Shown one piece after another: positions 38,994 to 39,714 of a stretch of DNA of 64,000 nt. The stretch lies in the NCBI GenBank assembly GCA_023261815.1, contig JALNKA010000002.1, positions 76,438 through 140,437 on the forward strand. Reading direction: 5' to 3'. Source of the stretch: Candidatus Wolframiiraptor sinensis. Lineage in GTDB: Archaea; Thermoproteota; Nitrososphaeria_A; Caldarchaeales; Wolframiiraptoraceae. The notes beneath the pieces are model-generated. The model was not told the DNA's origin. It saw only the letters and a list, made by a program, of their open reading frames with translations, and ran no database searches. Each line of letters starts with the position of its first letter. The first letter of the stretch is position 1. The position numbers were made by a program, and so were the translations under genes.

Positions 38994-39070
38994 CCCGATG
39001 AAAAGCCTCAGAAGACGCGTATATCAACCATCACCGCGAATTGGTTAGCGGGATAGCGCCATGCGTCGAA

Positions 39071-39080
39071 TTATATTTAA
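39071..39080 (+). promoter_or_regulatory. Putative archaeal TATA box for the tRNA gene
   Basis: ttatatttaa lies about 35 nt upstream of the tRNA 5' end. Confidence 0.35.
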
Positions 39081-39109
39081 GATAAACCACTGTGTATATT
39101 ATGTTTTGA

Positions 39110-39242
39110 AGCCCGGTCGTCTAGCGGCCAATCCAGCTGGTCAGATCGCGGGGTCATGGATCCCGGGCTTTGGATCATGGCCGCTTGGAGGGTCGTGGGA
39201 AGAGACCCGGGGACCTGGGTTCGAATCCCAGCCGGGCTACCA
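39110..39242 (+). tRNA. tRNA-Gln (anticodon TTG) with a canonical 31-nt anticodon-loop intron and a further 27 nt of non-canonical intron(s) in the D-arm region
   Basis: Acceptor AGCCCGG/CCGGGCT with discriminator A and encoded CCA. T-arm CTGGG-TTCGAAT-CCCAG. Anticodon stem CCGGG/CCCGG with loop CTTTGGA. The gene is 133 nt against an expected 76 nt. Confidence 0.65.
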
Positions 39243-39270
39243 TCTCTCCAATTTCCTCTCTTCACGAATC

Positions 39271-39280
39271 CTTTTTATTC
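39271..39280 (+). terminator. Oligo-T tract downstream of the tRNA
   Basis: ctttttattc lies about 30 nt after the tRNA 3' end. Confidence 0.25.
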
Positions 39281-39315
39281 GGAAGTGCTTTCGGCATGTC
39301 TGATGATGGCTTGAG

Positions 39316-39714
39316 ATGCGCATAGAGGATGAGATCAGGAGCATGAGGAAAAGAGACGATGATCTGAGTAAGCTGAAGCTAGACGTCATAAGGGTTCTCG
39401 CGATCTTCAACGGCGTCTCATGGATGACGGAGATAATTCCCGATATACTGAAGCTTCGCGGCGGCATTCCGGACTACGCGCTCCGAGAAGAGCTCTTAGA
39501 CGAGGCCATCCGCGACCTCGAGTCCGATGAAGTAATCCTCGTCGAGCCGAGATCCAGGGGGATGCCATTCTCGAGAGAGGTCCATGAGGATAAGCTGATT
39601 AGGCTTAGGGATCTATCCGCTGCCAGAAAGGCGCTCGCCGGAGAAATGGTTTATCTGAGCTACCTGCGCGGGCAGATGGAGGCGATAAGGCGCGCCTTGG
39701 AGAGCCGCGAGTGA
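39316..39714 (+). CDS. Hypothetical protein, possible winged-helix DNA-binding protein
   Basis: 132-aa ORF between the tRNA and rpl12; no diagnostic motif. Confidence 0.35.
   Translation: MRIEDEIRSMRKRDDDLSKLKLDVIRVLAIFNGVSWMTEIIPDILKLRGGIPDYALREELLDEAIRDLESDEVILVEPRSRGMPFSREVHEDKLIRLRDLSAARKALAGEMVYLSYLRGQMEAIRRALESRE

Follow-up and report, generated by a model that had tools for sequence, protein, structure and literature searches.

Two predicted introns, one in the D-loop and one in the anticodon loop, in a tRNA-Gln(UUG) gene of the Caldarchaeales

In the 64,000-nucleotide stretch of DNA analysed here (the window), we assign positions 39110-39242 of the plus strand, with high confidence, to a single-locus tRNA-Gln(UUG) gene of the Caldarchaeales (Aigarchaeota) that is built from three exons (39110-31, 39158-73 and 39205-42) and two introns. 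Read from the sequence, the gene is 133 nt long, which is 57 nt above the 76 nt of a tRNA including its CCA. An initial annotation of this DNA had recognised a tRNA-Gln(TTG) gene at these positions with its arms, its discriminator A and its encoded CCA, and had counted the same excess of 57 nt; our analysis agrees on both points. It had also proposed extra intron sequence of 27 nt in the D-arm region; a non-canonical intron is indeed present there, but the excess divides into 31 and 26 nt. The final assignment is as follows (capitals in the gene sequence are exons):

39110-39242, plus strand: whole gene, AGCCCGGTCGTCTAGCGGCCAA tccagctggtcagatcgcggggtcat GGATCCCGGGCTTTGG atcatggccgcttggagggtcgtgggaagag ACCCGGGGACCTGGGTTCGAATCCCAGCCGGGCTACCA
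39110-39131, plus strand: exon 1 (positions 1-21), with acceptor 5' strand AGCCCGG, U8 C9, D-stem 5' strand GTCT and D-loop AGCGGCCAA
39132-39157, plus strand: intron 1, non-canonical, 26 nt long, inserted between A21 and G22 (Sprinzl-style numbering made here) in a relaxed, HBh'-type bulge-helix-bulge (BHB) motif
39158-39173, plus strand: exon 2, with D-stem 3' strand GGAT, C26, anticodon-stem 5' strand CCGGG and loop C32 U33 U34 U35 G36 G37
39174-39204, plus strand: intron 2, canonical, 31 nt long, inserted at 37/38; its BHB motif is strict (hBHBh') and scores highest in the scan
39205-39242, plus strand: exon 3, with A38, anticodon-stem 3' strand CCCGG, the 4-nt variable region GGAC, the T-arm, acceptor 3' strand CCGGGCT, discriminator A and CCA

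The elements of the mature tRNA can be located directly. The acceptor stem joins AGCCCGG (39110-16) to CCGGGCT (39232-38) through seven Watson-Crick pairs, the discriminator A (A73) lies at 39239, and CCA is encoded at 39240-42. The T-arm occupies 39215-31 (CTGGG-TTCGAAT-CCCAG), and the anticodon arm consists of CCGGG (39163-67), the loop CTTTGG (39168-73) with the A that comes after it, and CCCGG (39206-10); the anticodon TTG is at 39170-72. When both introns are removed in silico, ARAGORN reports the 76-mer as tRNA-Gln(ttg), 76 bases, with a full and valid cloverleaf, which is the outcome that the initial annotation had asked of a tRNA predictor. In this cloverleaf the D-stem pairs GUCU with GGAU, the anticodon stem has 5-6 bp and the anticodon loop has 7 nt. 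Once transcribed and matured, a tRNA-Gln of this kind would be charged by way of Glu-tRNA-Gln, with conversion to the Gln form by GatDE.

To place the splice sites we used a BHB scan in which every possible intron is tested for a 4-bp helix H flanked by a pair of 3-nt bulges, one on each strand, that are cut after their second nucleotide; this geometry is taken from the established pairing rule of anticodon introns and is consistent with the review literature (PMC4090602). For intron 2 the scan finds a helix H with all four pairs (CTTT 39168-71 with GAAG 39199-202), bulges GG/A and AG/A (here and below a slash within a motif marks a cut or an exon junction), an outer helix of 7 bp that is the anticodon stem, and an inner helix h' of 8 bp (39175-82 with 39191-98). 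A 4-bp helix, opposite 3-nt bulges and flanking helices together define the strict BHB, and intron 2 has all of them. The intron of 31 nt at 37/38 had been proposed before at 39175-39205; its site and length stand, while the BHB geometry gives 39174-39204. The two sets of boundaries yield an identical product because an A flanks both ends.

The motif around intron 1 has a helix H that is equally complete (GGCC with GGTC, 4/4 pairs in the scan), with bulges AA/T and AT/G:

39126-39129, plus strand: helix H 5' strand of intron 1, GGCC = G18 G19 C20 C20a; the 5' bulge, A A / T, comes next at 39130-32
39152-39155, plus strand: helix H 3' strand of intron 1, GGTC; the 3' bulge, A T / G, comes next at 39156-58

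Its inner helix h' has 2 bp (C33 C34 with G50 G51) and closes the 5' bulge, and the internal hairpin of the intron includes CUGGUCAGA. Outer closure is provided by just one invariant pair, C16:G23, beside the D-stem, and the 3' bulge is poorly defined for this reason. Judged by its sequence, then, the motif is classed as relaxed (HBh'-like) and not strict, and it fits the relaxed HBh' class already described (PMC5829648; PMC4090602). The search for a BHB at the exon-intron junctions, a further check suggested by the initial annotation, returned a motif for both introns as assigned here, strict for the canonical one and relaxed for the one in the D-loop.

The same boundaries for intron 1 are reached by a second, independent route, namely homology to genes that have no intron. 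In 36 intron-less tRNA-Gln genes (73 nt) the order is GTCT-AGCGGNCAA-GGAT-N26-anticodon stem, uninterrupted. Exon 1 of the window equals the first 22 nt of such genes, AGCCCGGTCGTCTAGCGGNCAA, apart from one variable D-loop position (N20), which in the window is C, as it is in several of the intron-less genes. All 36 read ...GTCTAGCGGNCAA/GGAT N26 stem... and so reproduce the junction of 39131 with 39158 exactly (CAA/GGAT), which places the end of exon 1 at A39131 and the start of exon 2 at G39158 and makes the insert a single block of 26 nt. Two orthologues add to this picture: T39154 is replaced by C in L001 and L005, which turns a G·U pair of helix H into G:C, and the base that precedes CCGGG changes in L005 together with position 44 (the 26:44 pair goes from C..G to G..C). 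This latter covariation implies that GGAT-N26-CCGGG is contiguous exon and hence that the gap between the D-stem and the anticodon stem holds no intron. Taken together, these comparisons read the excess of the D-region as one block with one BHB, and the gene as one with two predicted introns, not three.

We then consider how far this arrangement is kept in other genomes. Searching one genome per species for AGCCCGGTNGTCTAGCGG gives 119 loci, from which 84 distinct genes were parsed, and in 63 of the 84 this D-loop site is occupied by an intron of 13-50 nt. In these 63 orthologues helix H of the D-loop intron has all four pairs in 62 and three of four in one, and exon position 20 faces its intron partner as C:G (42), U:A (13) or U:G (8), with no mismatches. 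For a formal covariation count, the alignment was fixed at the junctions that homology defines; this helix is 99.6% paired, with a double change from C:G to U:A in 12 sequences, and the first h' pair is CG in 51 cases and GC in 7. Of all cells, 90.9% are paired, whereas shuffles give 78.7 ± 1.0 and 0/500 of them come up to the real figure. The covariation score of 0.404 compares with 0.196 in the control, and registers shifted by 1-3 columns are at most 60% paired. The BHB helices of the D-loop intron are thus kept by compensatory change while the remainder of the intron drifts, and all controls are exceeded. For the canonical intron, helix H is complete in 55 of 59 orthologues and has three of four pairs in the other 4; here the partner of N34 tracks the anticodon base (C34 or U34), with C:G in 30, U:A in 18, U:G in 8 and C·A in 3.

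Sequence identity divides exons from introns in the same way. In comparison with 12 intron-containing relatives, the exons show 90-100% identity and not a single gap, the introns 59-88% identity and 2-11 gap columns, all indels being intronic; against syntenic orthologues from other species the exons are 97-100% identical. This identity and the ARAGORN call on the spliced sequence go well beyond chance. The gene order nfo - tRNA - 132-aa protein - rpP1 (ribosomal protein P1) - alaS is kept in relatives, more distant ones included. The 132-aa protein, encoded just downstream at 39316-39714, is 100% identical to a protein of a Nitrososphaerota MAG and has homologues from Aigarchaeota; contigs of GCA_023267835.1 and GCA_023252705.1 encode the same protein and have tRNA regions identical to that of the window. 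The nearest named relative by tRNA sequence is Ca. Wolframiiraptor sp. (L095), and we infer that the window belongs to the Wolframiiraptoraceae (a family described in PMC9246946). The initial annotation had taken multiple non-canonical introns as a sign of Thermoproteales or Korarchaeota, a placement that does not survive, as the contig is from a Nitrososphaerota/Caldarchaeales (Aigarchaeota) MAG; non-canonical tRNA introns were already known to be abundant in Aigarchaeota (PMC3082918).

General tools do not recover the gene from the genomic sequence. With default (bacterial) settings ARAGORN calls no genes across the whole window, and Rfam at gathering thresholds has no match in the window, the gathering score of RF00005 not being reached on the genomic sequence; even at E ≤ 10 there is no tRNA match in the window, merely fragments of T-arm assigned to unrelated families. 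Control genes point to the cause: the Rfam tRNA model (RF00005) gives 58.7 bits to an intron-less orthologue (L052), 50.5 bits to a gene with the D-loop intron only (L070, Pyrobaculum) and 44.5 bits to one with the canonical intron only (L059), and misses two genes with two introns (L013 and L009). ARAGORN at default settings and Rfam therefore miss the gene because the two inserts jointly bring the score below threshold, and in a genome annotated with these alone the tRNA-Gln(UUG), which is essential, would seem absent. Two further attempts produced models that we reject. ARAGORN with -i proposes a gene at 39135-39242 whose "intron" has 9 nt and whose acceptor stem is mispaired, wrong because this mode allows introns solely in the anticodon loop. 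A custom covariance model (18 intron-less tRNA-Gln genes, filters off) gives 32 bits at 39160-39239, where the local alignment mis-anchors the acceptor on AUCCCGG of the anticodon stem and leaves the introns unmapped. tRNAscan-SE 2.0 includes BHB models made for such genes (PMC8450103).

How the D-region excess should be divided can be asked of three partitions, and ARAGORN cannot decide among them since it accepts all three spliced products; the comparative data can. The partition that we consider extremely improbable has three introns in all, with two mini-introns in the D-arm (39128-40 and 39149-62, an option of the initial annotation, or 11 nt and 15 nt) beside the canonical one; the D-stem 3' strand would then be AGAT (39143-46). 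From the version of the initial annotation ARAGORN can build a cloverleaf, though with a D-stem of just 3 bp; without GGCCAATCCAG what remains is GTCT-AGCCTGGTC-AGAT, which resembles a typical archaeal D-arm; and three-intron tRNA-Gln genes do occur in relatives (L053, L125 and L102), albeit with the third intron in the T-arm. In intron-less homologues, however, the D-loop AGCGGNCAA runs straight into GGAT-N26-stem, and relatives have, from CAA to GGAT, one undivided insert of 13-50 nt that holds a single BHB. An AGAT-like strand is missing in many of these relatives (L051, for example, reads ...CTGGCCAGAGGACCAA), no BHB with a 4-bp helix H supports the mini-intron boundaries, and the 26:44 covariation of L005 marks GGAT-N26-CCGGG as contiguous exon. 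AGAT is intron sequence, the true strand being GGAT at 39158-61, and the Thermoproteales-type pattern of three inserts each with its own BHB is not what the gene displays, since two inserts suffice. The partition into one D-arm intron of 27 nt (39131-39157), the other option of the initial annotation, we hold to be highly improbable. Its 8-nt D-loop AGCGGCCA has a length that is canonical among tRNAs generally, and ARAGORN accepts the 75-nt product as tRNA-Gln(ttg), 75 bases. Such an intron is one base too long at its 5' boundary and loses the second A of the CAA that precedes GGAT in 36/36 intron-less homologues and in all parsed orthologues; helix H at 39126-29 with 39152-55, combined with the cleavage rule, puts the 5' cut after A39131 and not after A39130, and in the scan no 4-bp helix H accompanies the boundaries 39131-39157.

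There is also the question of whether the locus is a functional gene at all, and we see only the faintest chance that it is a degenerate or disrupted tRNA pseudogene or one whose D-region insert is never removed. What speaks for this is that standard finders are silent and that the predicted minimum-energy fold is not tRNA-like: RNAfold gives the 133-nt precursor -68 kcal/mol, against -55 kcal/mol with both BHBs formed, and the minimum-energy fold pairs 39120-36 with 39170-88, which is neither tRNA nor BHB structure. The objection from fold energy is weak because RNAfold misfolds the mature sequence too, whose minimum-energy fold is likewise not a cloverleaf. The failure of the tools, for its part, recurs on other two-intron orthologues and not on those with zero or one intron. 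Against decay stand the perfectly conserved exons, the BHB helices that covary over dozens of species in several orders, and the synteny of the locus in relatives. Moreover, CAA codons are read by the UUG isoacceptor, which is hence required.

Two other strong BHB-like geometries from the scan can be set aside. One, at 39123-39161, has an outer helix of 12 bp and exists only because the acceptor 5' strand matches the sequence of the anticodon stem; splicing there would lose the whole D-arm. The other, at 39143-39168 (H 4, outer 6, inner 4), would lose the 5' strand of the anticodon stem; of its helices, the inner one is disrupted in L001 and the outer one has a pair fewer in L005, with no compensating change.

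With the gene assigned to three exons and two introns, we can outline how it would be expressed, relying on established archaeal tRNA biology. Two flanking elements are candidates for transcription signals:

39070-39086, plus strand: A/T-rich box ATTATATTTAAGATAAA, a putative TATA/BRE-type promoter lying ~25-40 nt before the mature tRNA starts
39272-39276, plus strand: T5 run, from its sequence a possible archaeal oligo-T terminator, 30 nt past the CCA

Orthologues have a similar box, GTTTAAAA or AAAAATAC, at the same distance upstream. Transcription from the A/T box, ~30 nt upstream, would produce a pre-tRNA of ~133 nt or longer. The heterotetrameric (alpha-beta)2 splicing endonuclease, which is typical of the lineage and has been reported in Aigarchaeota (PMC3082918; PMC5829648), would then be expected to cut 2 nt into each 3-nt bulge of both BHBs. 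At the strict hBHBh' motif at 37/38 this would release the 31-nt intron, and at the relaxed HBh'-like motif, formed by D-loop G18 G19 C20 C20a and GGUC of the intron, it would release the 26-nt intron at 21/22. As G18 and G19 would be locked in helix H until the D-loop intron leaves, the tertiary contact between D-loop and T-loop could form only after splicing. An RtcB-type ligase would join the exons into the 76-nt tRNA, whose 3' CCA is already encoded. We infer from the sequence that both introns are spliced, and the mature junctions are predicted to be ...GGCCAA/GGAUC... and ...UUUGG/ACCCGG... in a tRNA reading ...GCGGCCAA/GGAUCCCGGGCUUUGG/ACCCGGGG... Put as a distinguishing prediction, removal of the two introns assigned here would leave mature GGCCAAGGAUCCCGGG with the two-A junction CCAAGGAU, against CCAGGAU if the D-arm intron had 27 nt.

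Closer inspection of the canonical intron reveals a short element that may bear on the order of splicing. At 39179-84 it contains GGCCGC, sometimes extended in relatives to UUGGCCGC, which is complementary to the D-loop exon sequence GCGGCC(AA) at 39124-31, a stretch that includes the GGCC of helix H of the D-loop intron. GGCCGC is present in the canonical intron of all 13 of 13 species-level relatives that combine a UUG anticodon with a GGCC D-loop, and it is kept across Wolframiiraptoraceae, Pelearchaeum and further relatives while the surrounding intron varies in sequence and length. None of the 31 CUG genes has it, those of the same genomes included, and it is also missing in UUG genes with a GGUC D-loop. 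The predicted duplexes have -15 to -19 kcal/mol, against -7 to -13 with shuffled introns. One reading of this pattern, which we think unlikely and which draws on sequence complementarity, is that the canonical intron acts in cis on the D-loop, either masking the second splice motif until its own removal, which would control the order of splicing, or serving as a folding chaperone. GGCCGC could also be simply inherited sequence. The exon partner of the element never varies. We offer the complementarity as a small, testable lead on splicing order.

In kind, the gene is nothing new, because the literature already has tRNA-Gln genes with two introns, HBh' introns in the D-loop and the enzyme that excises them, and its main practical value is for annotation. 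A close precedent is Candidatus Caldiarchaeum subterraneum, for which a multi-intron tRNA-Gln(CUG) with BHB junctions and a heterotetrameric endonuclease was described (Nunoura et al., 2011, PMC3082918; restated in PMC3293823). It shares with our gene the order and the isotype, the combination of a D-arm with a canonical intron, and BHB junctions, and two genes of a C. subterraneum MAG (L039 and L067) have introns at exactly the same two sites (CAA/.../GGAT and 37/38) with helix H 4/4. The two differ in the anticodon (UUG here, CUG there), in the introns, which have 26 and 31 nt here and 23-26 and 19-20 nt there and differ in sequence, and in GGCCGC, found in the canonical intron here and in none of the 31 CUG genes.

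A relaxed D-loop intron together with a strict intron at 37/38 in one pre-tRNA is also known from Methanopyrus kandleri, whose pre-tRNA-Glu(UUC) has a canonical intron and, at 20b/21, a relaxed HBh' D-loop intron (Kaneta et al., 2018, PMC5829648). An (alpha-beta)2 EndA cuts out both in vitro, the canonical one first (PMC5829648). Isotype and phylum differ from ours, as does the site by one nucleotide, 21/22 here (in the numbering made here) and 20b/21 there, and cleavage was shown biochemically in M. kandleri, whereas for the Caldarchaeales gene it is predicted. The multi-intron tRNAs of Thermoproteales are detected by the BHB models of tRNAscan-SE 2.0 (PMC8450103); an example, covered by the review PMC4090602, is the Pyrobaculum islandicum tRNA-Pro(UGG), which is interrupted at 25/26, 37/38 and 56/57. 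They resemble our gene in having BHB or relaxed BHB motifs at non-canonical positions, which in their case are processed by an (alpha-beta)2 endonuclease, and the three-intron genes among them differ from it in the number of introns (two here) and in lineage (Caldarchaeales here). In tRNA-Gln itself, the Pyrobaculum/Thermoproteus genes L070, L122, L073, L060 and L085 have an intron at the same 21/22 site. This site is common to Caldarchaeales, ammonia-oxidising Nitrososphaeria, Thermoproteales, some Bathyarchaeia, a Brockarchaeota MAG and an Aenigmatarchaeota MAG, a distribution with a modest bearing on whether such introns were inherited vertically from long ago or gained repeatedly.

As a minor point, we asked whether CUGGYCAGA, a motif of the D-loop intron, could be a dispersed or mobile element and rejected this, as 1.9 Mb hold 19 occurrences outside tRNA-Gln against ~14 expected by chance (our own estimate). 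One of the 19 sits in the D-loop intron of a further tRNA-Gln gene (L084).

The D-loop intron of the tRNA-Gln(UUG) gene contains a short core, CUGGYCAGA, that is conserved in D-loop introns of Caldarchaeales and of other Nitrososphaeria and is present in 38 of 63 orthologous D-loop introns. Its match in the window is:

39136-39144: CTGGTCAGA in intron 1

When the D-loop intron is short, the core forms the hairpin of the inner helix (h') of the bulge-helix-bulge (BHB) motif, with CU...AG closing a GGYCAG loop. Because this core is conserved and, at the loci examined, occurs beyond tRNA-Gln only at roughly the frequency expected by chance, the sequence comparison suggests that the D-loop introns of tRNA-Gln are homologous and old.

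The D-loop site CAA|...|GGAT of tRNA-Gln holds an intron in widely separated archaeal lineages, at the following loci:

L013, L014, L056, L064, L099, L101, L117, L121: Nitrososphaerales/Nitrosopumilales
L070, L122, L073, L060, L085: Thermoproteales
L055: Brockarchaeota
L019: Aenigmatarchaeota
L015, L050, L079, L091: Bathyarchaeia

The tRNA-Gln genes of most Bathyarchaeia, and those of Woesearchaeota, have no introns. Either the D-loop intron is ancient or the site is a hotspot of repeated gain.

The canonical intron holds a conserved element of its own, which in the window is:

39179-39184: GGCCGC, complementary to GCGGCC of the D-loop exon at 39124-39129

We find GGCCGC to be invariant in the canonical intron of tRNA-Gln(UUG) in 13 species (that of the window and those of L001, L005, L012, L016, L035, L037, L057, L082, L095, L104, L107 and L128), 5-9 nt past the 5' splice site, while the flanking sequence and the length of the intron differ between them. 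The duplexes of GGCCGC with the D-loop exon have predicted energies of -15 to -19 kcal/mol, compared with -7 to -13 kcal/mol when the introns are shuffled, and the RNAfold minimum-energy fold of the window gene includes this long-range pairing (39120-36 with 39170-88). Among the 31 genes for the CUG isoacceptor, including those that share a genome with a GGCCGC-bearing UUG gene, none has the element.

An additional insert in the T-arm of the tRNA-Gln gene (e.g. GGGAGTTCGAAAATCTTTCGAAAATCTCCC) makes L053 and L125, both from Bathyarchaeia, candidate three-intron genes and L102, from Pyrobaculum sp. WP30, a candidate two-intron gene (D-loop and T-arm). In L020, L089 and L118 (Thermoproteaceae/Pyrobaculum MAGs), GC-rich sequence comes after the tRNA-Gln 5' end AGCCCGGTCGTCTAGCGGNCAA, and a 3' half is not recognisable within 260 nt. 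Each may be a fragment, one half of a split tRNA or a gene with a very long D-loop intron. A complete intron-less tRNA-Gln of archaeal type lies on L032, a contig in a bin labelled Armatimonadota, and this contig may be mis-binned. The 17-base tRNA-Gln pattern was matched by chance, outside any tRNA context, in five bacterial MAG contigs (L023, L026, L027, L028, L112).

Two further features coincide with the tRNA gene in the window:

39061-39303, + strand: 80-aa ORF, same strand as the tRNA gene and covering all of it
39143-39168: well-formed BHB-like geometry (4-bp central helix, 6-bp outer helix ATCCAG:TTGGAT, 4-bp inner helix GATC:GATC)

A gene caller could report the ORF, which is almost certainly spurious. 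As an intron, 39143-39168 would excise the 5' strand of the anticodon stem, and its geometry shows no compensatory maintenance in L001 and L005; it is probably fortuitous but could be an off-target substrate.

Between the tRNA gene and ribosomal protein P1/alaS lies a small protein gene:

39316-39714, + strand: 132-aa protein, no Pfam domain

No more than 29 homologues came out of a database search, and those few with a named source are from Nitrososphaerota/Aigarchaeota. Synteny around this gene is kept at the loci examined. At L006, L007 and L008, which encode a 135-aa homologue, the upstream nfo and tRNA-Gln genes are replaced, and at L007 and L008 an IS605 OrfB/Cas12f1-like TnpB gene lies directly downstream of the small protein, which points to a local rearrangement.
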